Shown: piece by piece, positions 242 through 12,695 of the stretch | How positions within the stretch are numbered: the stretch's first letter is position 1 | Layout of the letters: each line of letters starts with the position of its first letter | Origin: Synergistales bacterium | GTDB taxonomy: Bacteria; Synergistota; Synergistia; Synergistales; JAFGMB01 | Direction: 5' to 3' | NCBI GenBank assembly: GCA_963666205.1 | Contig: OY762654.1 | Span: 1,984,001 to 2,048,000 of the forward strand | Length of the DNA stretch: 64,000 nucleotides | Translations under genes and position numbers: made by a program | Notes under the pieces: model-generated | Database searches by the model: none | Seen by the model: the letters and a program-made list of their open reading frames with translations, nothing else | What the model was told of the DNA's origin: nothing

Positions 242-369
242 GAAAAAGTCTTTTCCGATTAACCCTGCATATTTTTCCGTTCCTTCTTATTTGCCATCAC
301 ACAAAGATCACTTTTCCTTTTAGCCTGTGTTTTTTCATCACTATATTTCTTTTTATGGAGGTCTTTTAT

Positions 370-1932
370 ATGAAGAGCAGTTGCAGCTCAGTTTCTTTTC
401 GACGTTCTACGGTCTGTATGTTGTTTGTATTTGTGTTGTTCGCATTTATTTCTTTTACGGGTATAGTGACAGCGGTTTATGCTGAAACCTTTATGGTTAC
501 TTCAACCACTGATGATGTATCGGATACAGGTTCACTGCGTTACGCTATCCAAAATGGAACAAGCCAGGATGTAATAACCTTTGACCTTGAATACCCGGCA
601 ACAATTACATTAGGCCAACAGCTTAGAATCGTTCATGGAATCACAATCCAGGGACCTGGAGCGCATCTGCTTGAAGTAAGTGGCAATGACGAATTCAGGG
701 TCTTTGACATTGCTTGTTTGCAGGAACCCGTTACCATATCAGGTATTTCCATCGTTAGAGGTCGTGGTAAGGGCGGCGGAATATACAACATCAATCCCTA
801 TCTTACTGTGACGAACTGCACCTTCAGTGGCAACGGAGAATCTAATGATGGCGGCGGAATATACAACGAAAGTTCCAGCCCTACCGTGACAAACTGCATA
901 TTTACCATGAACAGTGCTCCTGGTGGCGGAGGGATGTACAACGACCATTCCAGCCCTACCGTAACGAACTGTACTTTCAGTGACAATAAAGGTGATGGTG
1001 GCGGAATGTACAACTATCGATCCAGTCCCACCGTTACGAACTGTACTTTCTCTTCGAACGGAGGAGGGCTTGCTGGCGGCGGAATGTACAACGATGAGTC
1101 TCATCCTGCTGTGACGAACTGCACCTTCAGTAAGAACAGCACTGGAGAGTTTAGTCTAGGCGGCGGGATGTACAACGAAAGTTCCAACCCTACCGTGACG
1201 AACTGTACTTTCTCTTCGAACTTTGCATCGTATGGCGGCGGAATGTACAACACAAACTGTTCCAGCCCTACGTTGAAGAACTGCATCTTTTGGGCTGACT
1301 GGGGCGAGATATTTAACGCTAATGGATGTGTTTCAGATCTCAGTTACTGTATTGTGGAGAACTGGGATGTTAGAGGACCAATTACACTTTCAGGTCCGAT
1401 CTATTCGTCAGATCCCAAACTTGGTCCATTGGCTGATAACGGAGGTCAAACGCAGACTTGTGCTCTTATGCCTGGAAGTTCAGCTATAGATCAAGGCTTA
1501 ACAATCCATTTTCTTTCAACAGATCAGCGAGGAGTAGATAGGCCTCAATGTGCCAGTTTTGATATCGGTGCCTATGAATTGAAATGTTACGCCCTTACCA
1601 CCACCTGCAATAGCGGAGGCTGCATTCTTCCTGAATCAGCAGATGTTTTTGAAGGTGCGAACATGGACTTTTACATCTATCCGGAATCGGATTATGGTAT
1701 ATCTGGAGTCTATGTCGACGGGAATCCCGTTTCTTATGATGAATTAAACTGCTGTTACACCTTCCAGAGTGTCTCTTCTGACCATGTACTCAGTGCTGAT
1801 TTTCAACCAGGCGGTGATGACGATGATAATAATGGAGGTGTCGGTGGAGGGGGCTGCAGCATCTCTGCATTGCCTGCCATTGGCTTGTTCTTGTTGATGC
1901 CCCTTATGTTCCTGTCAGGAAGAAGGAAGTAA
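370..1932 (+). CDS. Secreted right-handed beta-helix (GGGxYN/NCTFxxN repeat) surface protein with choice-of-anchor Q-like domain, InlB B-repeat-like domain and Synerg-CTERM tail
   Basis: GGAGG RBS at 357-361 favours ATG 370. Signal peptide ending AVYA; repeats GGGMYN...PTVTNCTFS; LADNGGQT...GSSAID...DQRG..R...DIGAYE; C-terminal GGGGCSISALPAIGLFLLMPLMFLSGRRK. Confidence 0.85.
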   Translation: MKSSCSSVSFRRSTVCMLFVFVLFAFISFTGIVTAVYAETFMVTSTTDDVSDTGSLRYAIQNGTSQDVITFDLEYPATITLGQQLRIVHGITIQGPGAHLLEVSGNDEFRVFDIACLQEPVTISGISIVRGRGKGGGIYNINPYLTVTNCTFSGNGESNDGGGIYNESSSPTVTNCIFTMNSAPGGGGMYNDHSSPTVTNCTFSDNKGDGGGMYNYRSSPTVTNCTFSSNGGGLAGGGMYNDESHPAVTNCTFSKNSTGEFSLGGGMYNESSNPTVTNCTFSSNFASYGGGMYNTNCSSPTLKNCIFWADWGEIFNANGCVSDLSYCIVENWDVRGPITLSGPIYSSDPKLGPLADNGGQTQTCALMPGSSAIDQGLTIHFLSTDQRGVDRPQCASFDIGAYELKCYALTTTCNSGGCILPESADVFEGANMDFYIYPESDYGISGVYVDGNPVSYDELNCCYTFQSVSSDHVLSADFQPGGDDDDNNGGVGGGGCSISALPAIGLFLLMPLMFLSGRRK

Positions 1933-2005
1933 CAGCCCAGCTTAGATAAAGAGATACACCAGCTAGATTATAAAAAAGCCAAGCTCGATCCGGGCCTGGC
2001 TTTTT
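1852..2005 (+). repeat. 154-bp direct repeat copy 1 (sorting tail, stop, spacer and terminator)
   Basis: Matches 3939-4092 with one mismatch on direct reading. Confidence 0.95.
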
Positions 2006-2123
2006 TAATGGTCCTTGGAGAGTTCCATAAAATGATCGAATCAGTATCCAAAACCTGCCAGGAAGAATAATGCTTCGAGAACCCATTATATCAGACTGTT
2101 ACCCTTTCATTCGGTGAATTAAC

Positions 2124-2151
2124 TTGACGTTTAAATCACTGGTGCTAAGAT
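2124..2151 (+). promoter_or_regulatory. sigma70-type promoter with extended -10
   Basis: TTGACG-16 nt-TAAGAT with TG; same context (GGTGAATTAAC) as 214-241. Confidence 0.6.
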
Positions 2152-2285
2152 GACAATAGTCTTTTTCCCTGAACTGATTGATATTTTCCACCTTTCTTAT
2201 CTTTCCACCATAAACAAGGCAGATCCCCTCTTTCTTCGCTTTCCCGTTTTACGAACTGATATTCAATTTTAGGGAGGTACTTGAT

Positions 2286-4019
2286 ATGAAGGATTGCGGT
2301 AAGAGATATTTCCGGTATTCCGTTTCTTTAGCATTGCTTGTATTTCTGTTAGCTTTATTTATCAGTTTTTGGGGAACGGCAGGTTATGCTGTGACTTTTG
2401 CAGTTACCAACACGAATGATTCTGGGGAAGGTTCTTTGAGAGCAGCTATTGTGAGTGCTGATGTTTACGAGGATGTAATAAGTTTTGACTTTGCTACTTA
2501 CCCTCAAACCATAACCCTGGAGTCTGAACTGGAGATAAGCGGCGATAAGAGTTTGAAGATCCAGGGTCCTGGAGCGGATAAGCTTGTTATCAGCGGAAAC
2601 AAAAAATGCAGAGTCTTTTATATTGCTACCACGGCGTCCGTGGACATATCAGGCATTTCCATCGTGAGCGGGAGTGCAGATATGGGTGGTGGAATGTACA
2701 ACTATCGATCCAACCCAATTATAACTAACTGTATCTTCTCTGCTAACACTGCTTCTAACGATATTAATGCTACTGGCGGCGGAATGCTTAATCGGAATAG
2801 CAGTCCTATAGTTACCAACTGCACCTTCTCTGAAAACAGCTCGAGCGTTTATGGGGGTGGGATGGGCAACGATACAGGTTCCAGTCCCACAGTCAGTAAT
2901 TGTACCTTCAACTCGAACAGCGCTTCTATTGGAGGCGGGATGTGTAATTGGTATCTTTACACCTCACCATTTCTTAACTGCACCTTCTCTTCCAACACGG
3001 CAGGTCAGGGCGGAGGTATGTACAATTTCGAATCATTGCCCGAGTTAACCACTTGTACTTTCTCTGAAAACACCGCAACCCAGAGGGGTGGTGGAATGTA
3101 TAACTCAGTTTCAAGCCCAGATATGACGAACTGTACCTTCAACGGGAACACTGCAAATGATTATGGTGGAGGAATCTATAATTATTTATCTGATCCCACC
3201 GTGATTAAATGTACATTTTTTGAAAACCATGCGGCAAATCATGGCGGCGGAATGTGCAATTATGAATCCACTTTTCATGTTTCTGATTGCACCTTTGATA
3301 CCAACAGCGCAGACTATGGAGGCGGCATGTTTAACGATTTCAAGCCATCCTCTGCCGTTACAGTATCCACGGTAATCCAAGGCAGTACATTTACAAACAA
3401 CATCGGAGTTGAAAAAGGTGGAGCTATCTACAACGAATATGCAAAAACGGTTGAGATAATCAATTGCACCCTGATCTTGAATTCTGCTGAATATGGTGGA
3501 GGAATTTATAGTTATATTTCCAGCCCTGTCATTACTAACTGTACTTTGACTGGCAATACAGCAAATTCGGGAGTTTCCATGTACAGTAAAGAGTCTGAAC
3601 CTTTTGCAAGAAATTGCATTTTCTGGGAGGACAATGGAGTGGAGGTCGTAAACAGTCTCTCTAGTCCGGATATAGCTTTCTGTGTTGTGGAGAATCAGAT
3701 AACAGGAGCCACGAACATTTCAGATATTATTACTGCAGATCCAATGTTGGAAGCATTGGATGATAACGGAGGTCCAACATGGACCTGTGCCCTGGGAAGG
3801 GGCAGTTCTGCCATAGATGAGGGGACTGACTCAGGCAATATTCCTAATACTGACCAGAGAGGAATAGAAAGGCCCCAGGGTGCCGGTTATGACATTGGCG
3901 CCTTTGAAGTGGAACCATCTTCATCTGACACCAGTAGTGGCTGCAGCATCTCTGCATTGCCTGCCATTGGCTTGTTCTTGTTGATGCCCCTTATGTTCCT
4001 GTCAGGAAGAAGGAAGTAA
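2286..4019 (+). CDS. Secreted beta-helix surface protein with choice-of-anchor Q-like domain and Synerg-CTERM tail
   Basis: GGGAGG RBS; signal peptide ending AGYA; about a dozen GGGMxN/CTFxxN repeats; DDNGGPTWT...DQRGIERPQGAGYDIGAFE; tail identical to that of 370-1932. Confidence 0.88.
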   Translation: MKDCGKRYFRYSVSLALLVFLLALFISFWGTAGYAVTFAVTNTNDSGEGSLRAAIVSADVYEDVISFDFATYPQTITLESELEISGDKSLKIQGPGADKLVISGNKKCRVFYIATTASVDISGISIVSGSADMGGGMYNYRSNPIITNCIFSANTASNDINATGGGMLNRNSSPIVTNCTFSENSSSVYGGGMGNDTGSSPTVSNCTFNSNSASIGGGMCNWYLYTSPFLNCTFSSNTAGQGGGMYNFESLPELTTCTFSENTATQRGGGMYNSVSSPDMTNCTFNGNTANDYGGGIYNYLSDPTVIKCTFFENHAANHGGGMCNYESTFHVSDCTFDTNSADYGGGMFNDFKPSSAVTVSTVIQGSTFTNNIGVEKGGAIYNEYAKTVEIINCTLILNSAEYGGGIYSYISSPVITNCTLTGNTANSGVSMYSKESEPFARNCIFWEDNGVEVVNSLSSPDIAFCVVENQITGATNISDIITADPMLEALDDNGGPTWTCALGRGSSAIDEGTDSGNIPNTDQRGIERPQGAGYDIGAFEVEPSSSDTSSGCSISALPAIGLFLLMPLMFLSGRRK

Positions 4020-4092
4020 CAGCCCAGCTTAGATAAAGAGATACACCAGCTAGATTATGAAAAAGCCAAGCTCGATCCGGGCCTGGCTTTTT
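3939..4092 (+). repeat. 154-bp direct repeat copy 2
   Basis: Matches 1852-2005 with one mismatch. Confidence 0.95.
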
Positions 4093-4164
4093 CATTGTCC
4101 AGAAAGGACGCTGCCATCCCCACAGTCACAAGTATTAAAATCGGAAGGACACCTTCCTTTCTAT

Positions 4165-4453
4165 TTTGCACAGCGTTCTCAGACCATAGAACGGGTATTT
4201 GCGTATGTCGGGGAAAGGCACGGTCTGAGATATCCCATGTTGAAAGGCAGGGCCAGAATAAAAATGGAGGTTCTGCTTACCTTTACATGTATGAATCTGA
4301 AAAAACTGGCTAAGTGGAAGGTCAAAGATCCAGGGTTGGGGGAGATTAAATCCTATGGTTCTTCAAATTCTACTCATTTTGTTTCAGCCAGGATTTAGAA
4401 AAATATAAAAGTCCCTTGGAACAGTATCTCCAAGGGACTTTGTCTGCAATCTG
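4165..4453 (+). mobile_element. IS1182-like transposase C-terminal remnant with probable right end
   Basis: RSQTIERVFA...RHGLRYPMLKGRARIKMEVLLTFTCMNLKKLAKW resembles the IS1182-type transposase C-terminus. Followed by a hairpin (4408-4441) and TTTGTCTGCAATCTG resembling an IS end. N-terminal part is absent. Confidence 0.7.
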
Positions 4454-5857: not shown

Positions 5858-7222
5858 TTGAACCCTGAACGAGAACACATGCTTGCGAATGAACCTGTTT
5901 CAAGCCTTATATGGAAGCTTTCCCTTCCAGCTACGGTAGGGATGCTGGTTCAAGCCCTTTATAACCTTGTTGACACCATATATATCGGTCACAGTGTGGG
6001 TGCTCTTGGAATAGCAGGGCTCTCCATCTCTTTTCCGCTGCAGATGATAATAGGTGGGACGGGGGCAATGCTGGGTATGGGTGCAGCCTCAGTCATATCA
6101 AGAAACCTGGGTGCAAAGAATTACAAGAGGGCAGAGGTGGCCTTTGGGAATAACCTTCTTGCCATTCTGATCTTTGGGGGGGGCATTGCCTTTGTCGGTA
6201 AGTTTCTGACTGTTCCGATCCTTCAGGCCTTCGGCGCCACCGAGGCCATATTGCCCTATGCTCTCGACTATATGAGCGTGATCTTTCTTGGGACGCCCCT
6301 TATTGTATTCTGTATGTCCATGAACAATGTTATCCGTTCAGAAGGAGCGGCAAAGGTCGCCATGTATTCAATGGTTATTGGTGCGATTGCTAACATAATA
6401 CTTGATCCGGTATTTATCTTTGTATTGGATATGGGTGTTCGTGGTGCAGCAATTGCAACAGTTATGGCACGACTGGTTGTTATTGGCTGGATTACCTATT
6501 ACTATTCCACGGGACAAAGCTTTTTAAAATTTTCCATCAAATATATGAAGCCCCAGCTGGATATTATGGTTGAGATCATCGCCATAGGCTTCCCTGCACT
6601 GGTCAGGCATGCTGCGTCAAGTTTCGTATTTGGAATGGTCAATCAACTGGCTGCCTTTTATGGGGGGGATATGGCAGTTGCTCTCTTCGGTGTCAACAAC
6701 CGGGTCATTATATTCTCCTTTATGCCTGCAATAGGAATAGCACAGGGAATGCAGCCCATCCTCGGCTACAGCTACGGGGCCGGTTCCTATCACAGGGCCA
6801 GGGAGGTCATACTGAAATCAGCTTTAATAGCTACTGTCTTTTCATCACTTCTGGCCTTAGTTTTTTTTATTTTCCCCAAGACGGTAATATCCATATTTAC
6901 CCATGATCCTGCCCTTCTTGAAATGGGACCCCATGCTTTGAGGCTAATGACCTTCGCTTTGTGTGTAATCGGTTTTCAGATGATAGGGGGAACCCTTTTC
7001 CAGGCTATAGGGAAGGCACTCCCGTCATTCATCCTCAATACATCCAGGCAGATCCTGATACTGATACCTGTCCTGTATTTTCTTCCGAAGTACATAGGTA
7101 TTGATGGTGTATGGCTTGCTTTTCCCATCGCAGACATCCTTTCAACCTTCATAACTGTTCTTGTAGTCATACCACAGATGAAAAGCCTGAAACGGGCTGA
7201 ACTTGCCATGGAAGGAGAGTGA
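5858..7222 (+). CDS. MATE family efflux transporter (MepA-like)
   Basis: LYNLVDTIYIG, NIILDPVFIF...GVRGAAIAT, GMQPILGYSYGA; 454 aa, polytopic. Confidence 0.93.
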   Translation: MNPEREHMLANEPVSSLIWKLSLPATVGMLVQALYNLVDTIYIGHSVGALGIAGLSISFPLQMIIGGTGAMLGMGAASVISRNLGAKNYKRAEVAFGNNLLAILIFGGGIAFVGKFLTVPILQAFGATEAILPYALDYMSVIFLGTPLIVFCMSMNNVIRSEGAAKVAMYSMVIGAIANIILDPVFIFVLDMGVRGAAIATVMARLVVIGWITYYYSTGQSFLKFSIKYMKPQLDIMVEIIAIGFPALVRHAASSFVFGMVNQLAAFYGGDMAVALFGVNNRVIIFSFMPAIGIAQGMQPILGYSYGAGSYHRAREVILKSALIATVFSSLLALVFFIFPKTVISIFTHDPALLEMGPHALRLMTFALCVIGFQMIGGTLFQAIGKALPSFILNTSRQILILIPVLYFLPKYIGIDGVWLAFPIADILSTFITVLVVIPQMKSLKRAELAMEGE

Positions 7223-7710
7223 CTTCCCTAATGACATCTCCGAAATCTATCGGGAAAATGGTGTCCGTTATCCACAGGTACGGTCACAGCTATTTTGATC
7301 ATGAATTTTCTGATCTTGATATAGGGCATGGACCGAGAAATTTTCTTGCAGCTCTTTTCTGTCGGGAGGGTATGACACAGGATGAGCTGAGTGAGTCCCT
7401 TATGATGGACAAGACAACAACTGCCAGGGCGGTGAAACAGCTTGTCCAGGCAGGATATGTGATCCGTAAAAGGGATGAAGATGACCATAGATACTATCAT
7501 CTTTATCTTACTGATAAGGCCAGAGACCTGGCTCCCCGTATATGGGATGCAAGGTCAAAATGGACTGAAGTATTATCGAAGGGATTCACCGAAGAGGAAA
7601 AAGAGCTAATCTATATTTTTCTTGAAAGGGCAGCAGATAATGCAGCTGGATTCAGGGAAGAAGGTTTTCTGTTACAGGTAGAAACAGGTCAGGATAGCGA
7701 TTCGAAATAG
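7219..7710 (+). CDS. MarR family transcriptional regulator
   Basis: TQDELSESLMMDKTTTARAVKQLVQAGYVIRKRDEDDHRYYHLYLTDKA; GTGA overlap with the MATE stop. Confidence 0.92.
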   Translation: MTSLMTSPKSIGKMVSVIHRYGHSYFDHEFSDLDIGHGPRNFLAALFCREGMTQDELSESLMMDKTTTARAVKQLVQAGYVIRKRDEDDHRYYHLYLTDKARDLAPRIWDARSKWTEVLSKGFTEEEKELIYIFLERAADNAAGFREEGFLLQVETGQDSDSK

Positions 7711-7788
7711 ACAAGTTAACAGGCAGGGAAGATATTATGATCACCTGCCTTTTAACGATGATCCCTGTGTGAGAGAAAGATTCTCTAT

Positions 7789-8184
7789 TCAGTTGCAGTC
7801 CCCTGAAGATACGTTCTGCTGAATCCAGTTCCTGGCTATGATAAGAGAGATTCCACTGGACTCGGTTTTTTCGATGATCATGGTGTCATTAATAAAACGA
7901 AGAAAATCCGGAACATAGAGGGTCATCTCATCGATCTTTATCGCAAAGTAGTTTATATTATCTCTCCTTCTGTCGCGCTCAACCAGAGCGCTCTGTTCCT
8001 CTCCTCAGTAACCCTTGTATATACCCATACGAATGTAGAGATCTGGGCCTTTTTCCCGCATTAGTTCTTTTACGGATTCCGATGCCACCACTGTTATGTG
8101 ATCAGATTGTCCCGATAATGCAGCTGGTACGGAAACATATAAGAATACAATGAATATGGCTGTTAAAGCTGAAGATCTCTTCAT
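7789..8184 (-). CDS. Putative secreted selenoprotein (HesB-like / CC-Se-motif-like), 131 aa with UGA at codon 60; not in the ORF track
   Basis: GGGAGGA RBS, ATG 8184, signal peptide MKRSSALTAIFIVFLYVSVPAALS. One in-frame TGA at 8005-8007 (YKGY-U-GEE), after which the frame stays open for 71 codons to TGA 7789-7791. SECIS-like hairpin follows the UGA. Confidence 0.72.
7975..7991 (-). promoter_or_regulatory. Candidate bacterial SECIS element
   Basis: mRNA GCGCUC-UGGUU-GAGCGC. The stem starts 13 nt after the UGA and the loop 19 nt after it, with G in the second loop position. Confidence 0.62.
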
Positions 8185-8458
8185 GTCTTTTCCTCCCTGT
8201 CATAACTGCTCATCTATTGTAACTTCGATACCATATTAAATACCGAGCTGTACGTGTGGCCGGAACTTAAGACACCACTGAAAAAAGTGTTTACTATTGT
8301 TCGATGAAAATATGTGCGCAGGTCTTTTAAAAAGTATGTCTGAAAGTAGCTTTTGAGTTGAAGAGGTGCTGGAACTATTTAACTTCTTATAGTATGATAT
8401 CACTAAAACAGGATGAATAGATGAAATACTATAACAAGAAAGAAAGGAGGGAGACGAA

Positions 8459-8893
8459 GTGAGAAAAGCTTTAGTTCCCATTGATACCAGTGCCATAAGC
8501 AGATCTCTTATCAGTTATGCTTTTGGATATGCCAGGAAAGAAGGTATTGAGAAGATCGACTTTCTCCATGTGATATCCAAACATGAACAGAGCTGGGATT
8601 ACAGGCTTGCAGAACTTGATGAAAGATTCCTGGCTGACTCCAGGGAACGTTTCATGTCCATGATCAAGGAGCAGATCGATAAAGGAGCAGATGGAGTGGA
8701 CTATGAGCTTGTGATAGCTTCTGGAGTGCCCTATAGCCAGATAGTTGAAAAGGCAGAGGAAGGCTACGACATAATTCTGATAGGTCACAGAGGCCTTAGC
8801 GATGTTGAGCGGTTCTTTATAGGAAGCGTTGCTGCAAAGGTGGTTCGTCATTCCCCATGTACTGTACTTGTCTATCATCCAAGGGAGGATTAA
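8459..8893 (+). CDS. Universal stress protein (UspA family)
   Basis: LVPIDTS, DIILIGHRGLSDVERFFIGSVAAKVVRHSPCTVLV; AGGAGG RBS. Confidence 0.93.
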   Translation: MRKALVPIDTSAISRSLISYAFGYARKEGIEKIDFLHVISKHEQSWDYRLAELDERFLADSRERFMSMIKEQIDKGADGVDYELVIASGVPYSQIVEKAEEGYDIILIGHRGLSDVERFFIGSVAAKVVRHSPCTVLVYHPRED

Positions 8894-9845: not shown

Positions 9846-12695
9846 ATGATCAGACCTGTATATGATCCAATGAAGGGAAGAATGAGGGTTGCAGCCCTCG
9901 CCTCCGGGTCAGGGAATACCCTGTGGAAAGTACATGATCTTCAACTGGAACTTGAAAAGACCTTTGAAGGCAGTACCTTTGAGGTAGTAGCCCTTTTTTC
10001 GGATAACCCAGGTTCAAAAGCGATTGAAACAGCAGGAGAAAGAGGTATTCCGGTCACTTCAATAGATATAAGGCAGTTCTATGCCGACAGGGAAAAACCT
10101 CTCAGGGACAGAGAAGTGAGAGCTGAGTTCGATAACCGCATAATGGATTTCTTCGAGCAGTATGATCCGGATGTGATCCTTCTGGCAGGTTATGTCTGGG
10201 CTACCACATCGGTAATTACAGGAAGTCTGCCGGTTATAAATGTACATCCTGCAGATCTTTCTGTTAAGGATAGCGATGGAGGAAGGGCATATGCAGGCGC
10301 TAACGGCGTTGGTGCTGCCCTTGCAGACAATGCACAGGAACTCCGGTCCAGTTCTCATCTGGCCACAGATGAGCTGGATGGAGGACCCATAATCCTTATA
10401 AGCCCGCCTGTTCCTGTCGATCAGGATCCTGGTATGGAAGAAAAGGAAAGATTCCGTAAATATCTGAAACTGGTGAATGAACAATCAAGGTCTACAGGGG
10501 CCAGAACGATCCTTGAAATATCACTTGGAAATTTTGGAAGAGATGAAAATGGTCTTCTTCACTATAAGGGAGATCCTGTTCCTGATGGAGTTAAATTGGA
10601 AAGCTGGAGTTCTTTTAAACCTCTCCATGAGAGGGATACTGAAAAACTTCTCAATCCCGGGAGTATTGCCGTTATTGGTGCTTCAGCCAAACCCGGGCTG
10701 GGTAATGCTGTTCTGAGGAACATCGTTGACTATGAATTCAATGGAAGTGTTTTTGCAGTAAATCGAAAAGGCGAAGATGTTCTGGGGGTCAGGGGATACA
10801 GAAGTGTAAAAGAGATCGAAGAGACTGTAGACCTGGCCCTTGTTACTGTACCTGCAAGTTTCGCTGTGGATGTCATAAAAGAGTGCGGAGAAAAGGGAGT
10901 AAGGGCAGTAGCGACCCTGACGGCCGGTTTCAGGGAAATGGGAGAAGAAGGGGCCAGAGCTGAATCTGAAATAATGGAGATCATTAACAGATACAATATG
11001 AGACTCCTTGGTCCCAACTGTATGGGCCTTCTTAATACCGACCCGCAGGTCAGACTTCATTCCAATATGCTTCAGAACATCCCTGCCAGGGGTCCCATAG
11101 GACTCATTACACAGAGTGGGGCCATCGGAGCGGCCATGCTTGACTGGGCCGAAGAGCTAGGTCTCGGATTTTCCATGATCACTTCCACGGGAAATCAGCC
11201 CGATCTCAACATCTGTGACCTTTTACCCCTCTATGCCCTGGACCCCGGAACGAAGGTCATTCTTGCATATCTTGAAATGATCCCTGAACCTGCGAGATTT
11301 GCAAGGATTCTTTCCAGGGTGAATAAAATTAAACCGGTCATTATCCTCAAGTCTGGAAGGACAGAGGCTGGTGCCGCCGCCGCAAGGTCTCACACGGGAA
11401 GTATGGCCGGAAATGAACAGATCGCTGAAGCACTTATCCAGAAGACAGGGGCTCTCAGGGTGAACACTCTGGAAGAAGCCTTTCTCCTGGCTTCGGCCCT
11501 CGGACGGATGCCGAAAGTGAGAGGCAACCGGGTGGGAATCATAAGCAATGCGGGTGGGCCAGGTACCCTTGTGGCCGACGCCCTCCATGATCTGGGTTTT
11601 GAACTCCCGGTTCTTTCCGATGAACTGAGAGACAGTCTGGCAAAGGACATTCTTCCCCAGGCTTCGACTGCGAATCCCCTTGATCTTGTTGCCACTGCTG
11701 CGCCTGAACATTATGGCAAAGCTTCCGGACTTATGGCGGAAAGCGGCATATACGATGCGCTTATAGTTATAATGGTACCCCCCGTAACTGTAGAGACAGG
11801 TTCCGTGGCCCAGGCCATGATCGATTCTCTCAAGGATATCGATATTCCTGTCCTTACTTGTTTCTTCGGCCCTAAAATGGGTAGAGCCGGGCGTAATGTC
11901 ATGCTTGAAGGTAAGATACCCTCTTTCCCCTTTCCTGAACAGACTGCTCAGGTCCTCAACCTCATGAGAGAGACAGAAACACCGGAAAAAGATGCAGCAG
12001 CTTACCCCTCCGCGGTTCCAGCTAGAGAACTAAAGAATACCAGGTCCCTTTTCAAAGGGACTGCCGGTACTTTTCTCCCCCCGGAAAAGTGCCAGACCCT
12101 GCTCATGTCATATGGATTCAAGGTAGCAAGATCCATTCTGGTGTTATCCCCTCAGGAGGTTGATGGCCTGGACTTGAAATTTCCTGTAGTTGCGAAGATA
12201 GATCACAGCGATATTATTCATAAATCCGATAGCGGGGGGGTTATTCTTGACATTGCCGATAAAGGCTCTCTTAAAAAGGTAGTAACCGAAATGTTTTCAA
12301 AGTTTCCCGGGGCAAGGGGTGTGCTGGTACAGGAACAGGTTTGCGGAAATGTGGAGGTGATACTTGGAGCGAAAAGTGACCCGGCCCTTGGTCATGTCGT
12401 TCTGGCTGGCTATGGTGGAGTTGGGGTTGAGGTATTTAAGGATGTGTCACTGGGTCACGTTCCCTTCGACGGGGTAAGTGCCCGGAAGATGCTGAAAGAC
12501 CTGAAGTGTTACCGGATCCTGGAAGGATACAGGGGAAAGCCGGGAGTGGACCTTGAAAACCTAGAAGACCTCATAATGAAAATGCAGGGTCTTCTTATCA
12601 GTAATCCCGAAATAGAAGAGATGGACCTGAATCCCCTTATCTTTGACGGTAAGGAATTTATCGTAGCCGATTACAGGATAAAGATAGCAGGTTAA
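9846..12695 (+). CDS. Fusion: PurN-like formyltransferase plus ADP-forming acyl-CoA synthetase (alpha+beta)
   Basis: N-terminal ~250 aa: ASGSGNTL, INVHPADL, ELDGGPII. Remainder: PGSIAVIGAS, LLGPNCMG, TQSGA, SHTGS, SNAGGPG, NPLDL, IHKSDSGGV, MDLNPL. Confidence 0.85.
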   Translation: MIRPVYDPMKGRMRVAALASGSGNTLWKVHDLQLELEKTFEGSTFEVVALFSDNPGSKAIETAGERGIPVTSIDIRQFYADREKPLRDREVRAEFDNRIMDFFEQYDPDVILLAGYVWATTSVITGSLPVINVHPADLSVKDSDGGRAYAGANGVGAALADNAQELRSSSHLATDELDGGPIILISPPVPVDQDPGMEEKERFRKYLKLVNEQSRSTGARTILEISLGNFGRDENGLLHYKGDPVPDGVKLESWSSFKPLHERDTEKLLNPGSIAVIGASAKPGLGNAVLRNIVDYEFNGSVFAVNRKGEDVLGVRGYRSVKEIEETVDLALVTVPASFAVDVIKECGEKGVRAVATLTAGFREMGEEGARAESEIMEIINRYNMRLLGPNCMGLLNTDPQVRLHSNMLQNIPARGPIGLITQSGAIGAAMLDWAEELGLGFSMITSTGNQPDLNICDLLPLYALDPGTKVILAYLEMIPEPARFARILSRVNKIKPVIILKSGRTEAGAAAARSHTGSMAGNEQIAEALIQKTGALRVNTLEEAFLLASALGRMPKVRGNRVGIISNAGGPGTLVADALHDLGFELPVLSDELRDSLAKDILPQASTANPLDLVATAAPEHYGKASGLMAESGIYDALIVIMVPPVTVETGSVAQAMIDSLKDIDIPVLTCFFGPKMGRAGRNVMLEGKIPSFPFPEQTAQVLNLMRETETPEKDAAAYPSAVPARELKNTRSLFKGTAGTFLPPEKCQTLLMSYGFKVARSILVLSPQEVDGLDLKFPVVAKIDHSDIIHKSDSGGVILDIADKGSLKKVVTEMFSKFPGARGVLVQEQVCGNVEVILGAKSDPALGHVVLAGYGGVGVEVFKDVSLGHVPFDGVSARKMLKDLKCYRILEGYRGKPGVDLENLEDLIMKMQGLLISNPEIEEMDLNPLIFDGKEFIVADYRIKIAG

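Follow-up and report, generated by a model that had tools for sequence, protein, structure and literature searches.

Gene structure and neighbourhood

The question raised by this locus is whether an apparent gap between two genes of a Synergistales bacterium encodes a single protein by way of an in-frame UGA codon and, if so, what such a protein may do. The window investigated, i.e. the whole stretch of 64,000 nucleotides, comes from a genome (G000) that is complete and consists of a single contig. An earlier note on the window had proposed a hidden, secreted selenoprotein gene between marR and usp. Translation with TGA as selenocysteine (Sec, U) reproduced the 131-aa protein of that note exactly, the sole internal stop being the TGA at codon 60 (8007-8005) and the terminal stop the TGA at 7791-7789. 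The gene and its product are called the Sec gene and the Sec protein below.

8184-7789, minus strand: coding sequence for 131 aa, ended by a TGA stop, with one in-frame UGA almost certainly read through
8191..8197, minus strand: ribosome-binding site GGGAGGA, 6 nt upstream of the ATG
7716..7754, no strand assigned: inverted repeat between the Sec gene and the convergent marR, a weak candidate for a shared terminator, from folding only

Under genetic code 11, no same-strand ORF of at least 60 aa was listed over the Sec gene in the marR-usp gap, and gene callers split the gene in two at the UGA. It is convergent with marR (7219-7710, plus strand) and divergent from usp (8459-8893, plus strand), names taken from the earlier note and from reading of the translations rather than from a family scan. 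Four orthologues have a purine-rich site at the same start, and in comparison with all four closest orthologues codon positions one and two had changed less than position three, before the UGA as well as after it. A promoter and terminator scan found nothing on the strand of the Sec gene and did not report the repeat at 7716..7754.

The flanking arrangement of marR/MATE and usp was found only in this genome and in one of the same genus, the other three orthologues of the Sec gene adjoining unrelated genes. Since only two genomes show the arrangement and the genes are convergent or divergent, a functional tie to marR/MATE or usp was dismissed. Elsewhere in the window, two secreted proteins encoded in tandem (355-4019, plus strand) contain repeated motifs resembling a beta-helix, share an identical C-terminal hydrophobic tail (GCSISALPAIGLFLLMPLMFLSGRRK) resembling a sorting signal, and are followed by a short ORF (4057-4398, plus strand) that we take to resemble a transposase fragment. 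In a 949-aa ORF (9846-12695, plus strand), a formyltransferase-like N-terminus appeared by eye to be joined with an acyl-CoA synthetase/CoA-binding region.

Part of the window was contained in 20 of the 24 sequencing runs listed, four of which were examined in detail. Contigs of three RNA libraries from two studies crossed the UGA (7764-8363, 7609-8205 and 7645-8182), and one DNA run covered the whole region of the Sec gene. No change in the Sec codon or the hairpin was present among the matches listed from four independent runs. The RNA-library contigs give a weak hint of expression; strand, level and true transcription are not readable from them.

Selenocysteine at the in-frame UGA

8005..8007, minus strand: UGA, almost certainly selenocysteine U60 (TGA in 101 of 109 homologues; Sec/Cys pairs)

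The aligned site was compared in 109 distinct homologues, extracted from 134 loci that had been picked among the best matches with a preference for leader-bearing and stop-free ones. It was TGA in 101, a Cys codon in five and TAA, Ala and Asn in one each, with no TGG at all, i.e. Sec or Cys was present in 106 of the 109. TGA was conserved across proteins of about 20 % identity, and a search with the protein alone gave matches in 18 of 61 related genomes, every listed match holding at least one TGA. In exported Cys-type relatives Cys replaces Sec directly, and Cys forms occur also in genomes that carry selA. Further exported Sec/Cys pairs came from a clade related by profile (probability 98.8), in which the 13 loci read comprised five with Sec (TGA) and eight with Cys. 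In two tandem pairs (L050, G174:C6; L058, G173:C1), one copy has Sec and one Cys, the Cys copies having weaker hairpins (-6.2 and -8.5 kcal/mol, compared with a mean of -11.6 for TGA copies).

The earlier note had argued that Trp, Arg or Gly at the site in homologues would point to a simple nonsense mutation. Trp was found in the database proteins P0002 and P0077, whose cluster mates end exactly before it; this Trp is most likely a TGA translated under another code, and these homologues were therefore rejected as evidence of nonsense mutation. For P0077 it is the cut-off cluster mates that point to a TGA, as a scan of metagenomes with back-translated peptides yielded no relatives of it (310 stretches, none confirmed). 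The corresponding scan of GTDB genomes for relatives of the Sec protein likewise confirmed none of 212 stretches.

Sec is not kept everywhere. A close orthologue (L022; G004:C138, about 2453-2815, minus strand) has TAA in place of TGA with the hairpin intact, and is either a duplicate that broke recently or an artefact of assembly, a TGA copy (L006) being present in the same genome. Ser, Ala or Asn stands at the site in P0018 and two cytoplasmic relatives. Taken with the TAA of L022, this means that some lineages can do without the selenol.

The selenoprotein assignment rests decisively on the conservation of TGA together with the covariation of the hairpin described below. On this evidence the Sec gene almost certainly makes one protein with selenocysteine, as the earlier note had read it, and its existence as a selenoprotein gene is held to be very nearly certain.

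The SECIS hairpin

7975..7991, minus strand: SECIS hairpin GCGCUC-UGGUU-GAGCGC, slipped by 2 nt from the family register (7990-7974)

Starting 13 nt after the UGA, the hairpin is the fold of lowest energy (-11.5 kcal/mol, z -2.37); five of 200 shuffled controls were as stable. The rules for bacterial SECIS elements given in the accessible part of a recent review are a loop of 3-9 nt, a stem of 4-16 bp, a G among the first two loop positions, a spacing of 16-37 nt and at most -7.5 kcal/mol (PMC13188914). The hairpin of the Sec gene satisfies them, as do those of 82 of the 101 TGA homologues and two of the eight non-TGA homologues. Since the rules are also met at 296 of 3000 random TGA triplets of the same genome, i.e. 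about 10 %, a rule-fitting hairpin is by itself weak evidence.

Pairing across the family was more informative. With the U of UGA as position 1, the register 18-24/28-34 was 92.1 % paired among 29 aligned sequences, with 18 two-sided changes, whereas slid registers reached 37-59 %; none of 500 shuffles was as high, figures that come from related sequences and hence carry no probability. The register drawn in the earlier note, 17-22/28-33, was 52.9 % paired family-wide, and full pairing in it was seen in only two of the 101 TGA homologues. The Sec gene itself prefers this register (-11.5 vs -5.0 kcal/mol in the family register). The hairpin proposed earlier thus stands as a predicted, rule-fitting fold, and its conservation is borne out by covariation, but the register described is the one that this gene prefers and that of the family is shifted by 2 nt. 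G25-U26 is invariant in the loop under either register, the same bases being fixed also by a conserved Val codon, and the Leu codon of the stem is CTN in all 90 TGA genes with Leu there.

Selenocysteine machinery and distribution in Synergistota

All four genes that the earlier note had asked about were found in the genome: selA, selB and selD, each above its curated cut-off and selD with one in-frame TGA, and the tRNA-Sec gene selC, by ARAGORN. None of the outcomes that the earlier note had named as refuting its reading was observed. The genome carries four copies of the family; an ORF with two adjacent UGAs (G000:C1, about 1529565-1529880, minus strand) gives only a weak match to the family profile (E 0.027). 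Searching with a 28-row profile, relatives were identified in 120 of 268 Synergistota genomes, the loci being drawn from among the matches listed (there were 43 further matches). selA was present in 208 of the 268 genomes, among them 114 of the 120 with a family member. Four of the six family-positive genomes without selA are 56-86 % complete, and the other two (G161 and G162) carry Cys at the site. When a DNA motif of the exported clade was run against GTDB genomes, all 19 stretches matched belonged, by record title, to Synergistota, a phylum described as rich in selenoproteins in the part of the source available (PMC5029168).

Family assignment and predicted fold

By sequence comparison, the Sec protein is a divergent Synergistota branch of a catalogued selenoprotein family, NF041239 (Moor_selen_rel, the CC/Se motif family). 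In NCBIfam it matched this family at 20.4 bits (E 4e-4), below the cut-off of 40, and SufA weakly. All 28 members of the first alignment matched NF041239 at E <=0.05, and the profile of that alignment in turn retrieved full NF041239 members. Against 1.84 billion representatives the profile gave 127 hits, many of them N- or C-terminal halves and many full NF041239 members, and 11 of the 22 hits scanned passed the NF041239 cut-off. A cytoplasmic paralogue in the same genome (G000:C1:578114-578431, minus strand; L002/L135) also passes it, at 44.4 bits; it has the motif GSGU and the tail GSCGI and occupies the family's conserved locus, with the HD-domain and RluA genes preceding it. The Sec protein was not assigned to any Pfam family, and PF01521 (IscA/SufA/HesB) was touched by four of 108 members. 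PF01521 was absent at E 0.1 from the complete genome, where a very divergent copy is possible.

7816..8106, minus strand: predicted mature IscA/HesB-like domain, about residues 27-123, from the AlphaFold2 model and fold searches

With 108 rows as input, AlphaFold2 modelled the mature domain at a mean pLDDT of 83.8, the last eight residues being disordered and U60 lying in an exposed loop between strands 2 and 3. The first nine rows of a Foldseek search were IscA, SufA or similar small proteins, the best being 1X0G (probability 0.98, E 0.015), with no match at E <0.001. In a wide structure search, eight chains reached Z >=2, led by SufA (Z 6.1, rmsd 3.7, 87 aligned), DsrR (5.8) and IscA (5.7 and 5.4), and all rows of Z >=3 were IscA-fold or putative Fe-S biosynthesis proteins. 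A sequence search of solved structures gave no match at E <0.4; IscA came up at E 0.87, and in this weak profile alignment U60 falls on the first conserved Cys of Escherichia coli IscA, C35. The modelled fold is IscA/HesB-like, with modest match scores. The relationship to HesB-like and CC/Se proteins suggested earlier is accordingly upheld on both counts, homology to NF041239 and best fold matches to IscA, SufA and DsrR.

Predicted signal peptide and exported clade

8113..8184, minus strand: predicted signal peptide, residues 1-24, with a basic start, a hydrophobic core and A-L-S before the presumed cut

Leaders were judged by a hydropathy rule and motif regular expressions, and the cut site by eye. 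The leader of the Sec protein scored 2.68 over 12 residues and has neither a twin-arginine motif nor a lipobox. Leaders are conserved in relatives, which, with the hydropathy rule, supports the export signal read earlier; that of the Sec protein may be cleaved off or may stay on as a membrane anchor. Among the 109 homologues, 53 have a leader and 55 lack one, and one (L117) falls under the threshold; a twin-arginine-like pattern occurred in three of the 53 leaders and a lipobox in none.

A group of 37 members is defined by a Tyr four residues before Sec, so that the Tyr column is true by definition; 35 of its 36 TGA members pass the hydropathy rule. The group shares a G at -6 (35 of 37), a basic residue at -3 (32 of 37), an E at +2 (37 of 37) and S/T-x-L-V. 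By sequence, the Sec protein is included in this clade of Synergistota proteins, predicted to be exported and marked by G-x-Y-[RK]-x-x-U-[GC]-E. The GYUG motif of the earlier note does not hold for the group, as the residue at -1 is T in 20, F in 10 and Y in four of the 37; it is G-6 and E+2 that are shared. The exported clade unites the Sec protein with a tandem pair of the same genome (support 100/96), and the subclade of the Sec gene consists of five members, all in its family (support 100/99).

The 55 leaderless homologues mostly have G-x-G-U, many with Cys-rich tails. Many of their loci follow HD-domain and RluA genes (the upstream gene is common to 47 loci) and often lie upstream of a glutamate dehydrogenase-like gene. 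Several exported relatives lie directly before iorA (TPP/ferredoxin oxidoreductase domains) and diverge from a PD-(D/E)XK nuclease gene, a setting that the Sec gene does not have. The further exported clade related by profile (L164-L176) has YYTU or FYSC motifs; at four of its loci the upstream gene resembles, by eye, a PilY1/PilC-type propeller, and two fragments of this gene that were scanned had no Pfam match.

The description of the Sec protein as an exported member is therefore right as to the leader but not as to its singularity, since three of the four paralogues in the genome have leaders, and so does P0077. The latter, which scores as a full member of NF041239 (60.8 bits), has a signal peptide and the sequence CAS-W, probably CxxU, so that export occurs in the canonical family too. 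Two independent origins of export are not claimed: the trees need two or more changes, and a single origin was not rejected (p-AU 0.171) in a test with 50 of the 109 rows.

Cysteine residues outside the Sec site

7795..7797, minus strand: C130, the protein's sole Cys, which is not conserved and falls in a disordered tail (pLDDT <50), from AlphaFold2 and the alignment

A C-terminal Cys is present in two of the five subclade members, the Sec gene and its same-genus orthologue. Among the 36 TGA members of the Tyr-defined group, eight have no Cys in the mature domain, seven have one in a free tail and the remainder have Cys in the last strand and/or next to Sec. Other exported members lack Cys in 13 of 17 cases, and altogether 21 of the 53 exported TGA members are without any Cys. 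Since Cys positions vary or are absent across exported members, Sec is the sole constant reactive residue, and the suggestion that the lone C-terminal Cys acts as a resolving residue is doubtful.

Proposed function and alternatives

Judged from sequence, thiol-disulfide or sulfur exchange would best fit an exposed single selenol in the envelope of an anaerobe. The specific proposal, given about an even chance, is that the Sec protein exchanges thiols or sulfur in the periplasm through its single selenol and depends on other proteins for its recycling. SelB and tRNA-Sec would decode the UGA, guided by the hairpin (a strongly supported step), and the general secretion pathway would export the protein unfolded. 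Because it would travel unfolded, and its leader lacks twin arginines though tatC is in the genome, it would presumably carry no pre-built metal cluster; Fe-S proteins usually travel by Tat. Folding would, according to the model, place U60 on an exposed loop at the position of IscA's first Cys. There U60 could serve as the lone selenol nucleophile; envelope proteins or small sulfur species would be its partners in thiol-disulfide or persulfide/polysulfide exchange, and a mixed selenylsulfide would form. Another protein, plausibly a membrane-anchored Sec-thioredoxin encoded beside ccdA, would then reduce this intermediate, C130 being optional in the cycle.

Elsewhere in the genome, the upstream neighbour of ccdA is a leader-bearing, thioredoxin-like ORF of 136 aa with the motif UPAC (L156:1025-2136 with ccdA; G000:C1:775067-776178, plus strand), split at its TGA under code 11. 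It is probably an unannotated exported Sec-thioredoxin, and its position beside ccdA suggests a possible recycling path for the Sec protein. A redox-type residue is supported by the retention of Sec or Cys in 106 of the 109 homologues and by the many exported members without other Cys. A polysulfide-reducing selenoenzyme has been described, which in the part of the source available is multiheme and unrelated to the Sec protein (bioRxiv 10.1101/2025.11.18.688581). Several observations weigh against exchange: the fold is not a thioredoxin fold and known IscA-fold proteins carry Fe-S clusters, the fold matches are modest, the neighbourhood is lineage-specific and offers no clue, the Sec gene is unlinked to the ccdA locus, and Sec has been lost in L022, P0018 and two cytoplasmic relatives.

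The next reading, possible but on balance unlikely, is a periplasmic chaperone for soft metals or iron, in which U60 together with the conserved Y56 and E62, or with a second subunit, would bind Cu, Hg, Cd or Fe for hand-on or sequestration. The U60 site is a metal ligand in IscA, the E at +2 is invariant (37 of 37), a Cys is adjacent to Sec in eight members and, in the accessible part of the review, several bacterial selenoproteins are proposed as metal ligands (PMC13188914). However, no recurring metal-resistance or transport gene was seen among the nearest neighbours of the 109 homologues, compared as sequence clusters of which some are annotated.

The earlier note's suggestion that the C-terminal Cys could be the resolving residue would make U60 and C130 an intramolecular redox pair, with C130 resolving the U60 selenylsulfide; this is judged distinctly unlikely. 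C130 does lie on a flexible tail, a Cys occurs within the last 14 residues in 37 of 48 cytoplasmic relatives, a sister exported subclade has a tail Cys in five of five members (EGxGC), and the other two ligands of IscA are C-terminal. Yet its presence in two of five subclade members, and the 21 of 53 exported TGA members that are Cys-free, argue otherwise, and the group's other Cys residues mostly adjoin Sec or sit in the last strand, 10 residues ahead of this position.

A Sec-ligated A-type Fe-S carrier outside the cytoplasm, holding clusters between subunits, is very unlikely. The IscA/SufA fold, the alignment of U60 with C35 of IscA and the Cys-rich tails of cytoplasmic relatives would suit it, as would the missing PF01521 match in the genome, since the family may then replace A-type carriers. 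Such carriers use three Cys ligands, according to the part of the source available (PMC8593673), whereas one Sec and one non-conserved Cys are found here. The leader is not of twin-arginine type despite tatC in the genome, and none of the neighbours was recognised as an Fe-S assembly gene. Equally, a degenerate IscA-type binding or sensor module, comparable to the N-terminal domain of NfuA or to DsrR and with the selenol as a redox switch rather than a catalyst, is highly improbable. DsrR came second among the structural matches (Z 5.8), degenerate A-type domains without cluster binding have been described (PMC8593673, in the part available), and both Sec and Cys have been lost in some relatives; against this, 106 of 109 homologues retain Sec or Cys and no conserved partner gene was found.

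A nonsense mutation or true stop, leaving a pseudogene or a 59-aa peptide, is effectively refuted: the TAA of L022 and the fit of about 10 % of random TGAs to the hairpin rules speak for it, but TGA is conserved at about 20 % identity, the half after the UGA is conserved and shows third-position bias, the hairpin covaries and the codon is unchanged among the matches listed from the four independent runs.

Comparison with known systems

The Sec protein resembles NF041239 members in size, in the Sec/Cys loop and in homology over the domain. It differs in having neither CxxU nor CC (the CC motif as read from the family name, CxxU from the table in PMC13188914, seen in part) and in having KGYU at the site, G-x-Y-[RK]-x-x-U-G-E and a leader. 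That table, in a 2026 review, gives NF041239 as a predicted family with the motif CxxU and, in the part available, no function or localisation. Among the parts compared of its 119 families, including NF041239 (CxxU) and HesB-like (UxGP), none has the motif of the Sec protein (PMC13188914).

HesB-like selenoproteins (TIGR01911; NF038090, IscA_HesB_Se) belong to the same fold class with Sec in the equivalent loop, but their listed motif is UxGP (PMC13188914, table seen in part), compared with UGE here. In NCBIfam the Sec protein matched neither TIGR01911 nor NF038090, the latter being touched by one of 28 members (E 0.046). A Methanococcus mutant in a HesB-like selenoprotein was unimpaired in nitrogen fixation, according to an unpublished observation cited in the accessible part of PMC11097638. 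IscA/SufA (PDB 1X0G, 2D2A and 1S98) and DsrR (2K4Z), the best structural matches, are 8-14 % identical to the Sec protein, which differs from them in its predicted export, in lacking a C-terminal Cys pair and in giving no PF01521 match. Nor does it have the three Cys ligands, two of them C-terminal, described for A-type carriers (PMC8593673, in the part available).

The same-genome tandem pair (G000:C1:2421272-2422130) is of the same family and exported clade, with TGA, SECIS and leader present. It is about 20-22 % identical to the Sec protein and keeps the common neighbourhood, with the nuclease gene upstream and iorA downstream, whereas the Sec gene is at a lineage-specific site. In the full texts searched, as far as available, no exported or Synergistota branch was described and NF041239 was named in PMC13188914 only; BSepDB (PMC13326102) and Haft and Tolstoy 2025 could list members.

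Implications

The significance is tempered by the parent family, NF041239, being already catalogued, and by the chemistry being deduced from sequence. The family nevertheless adds an unannotated, predicted exported branch to the bacterial selenoproteome, its relatives often occurring in two to five copies per genome and many database entries being halves cut at the UGA. The Sec gene also exhibits a SECIS element whose pairing register has altered while the codon stayed. A wider proposal, tentative and of low probability, is that the IscA/HesB fold of Synergistota forms a multi-copy exported single-Sec system, in which a cytoplasmic Cys-tailed ancestor may replace A-type carriers and periplasmic copies, supplied by a Sec-thioredoxin/CcdA relay, would use one Sec to transport equivalents of sulfur, selenium or Fe-S outside the cytoplasm. 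If true, this would give the fold a role and a compartment new to it. The natural variants with Sec, Cys or Ser/Ala, with and without the tail Cys and with and without the leader, make the question of what HesB-like and CC/Se selenoproteins do a testable one.
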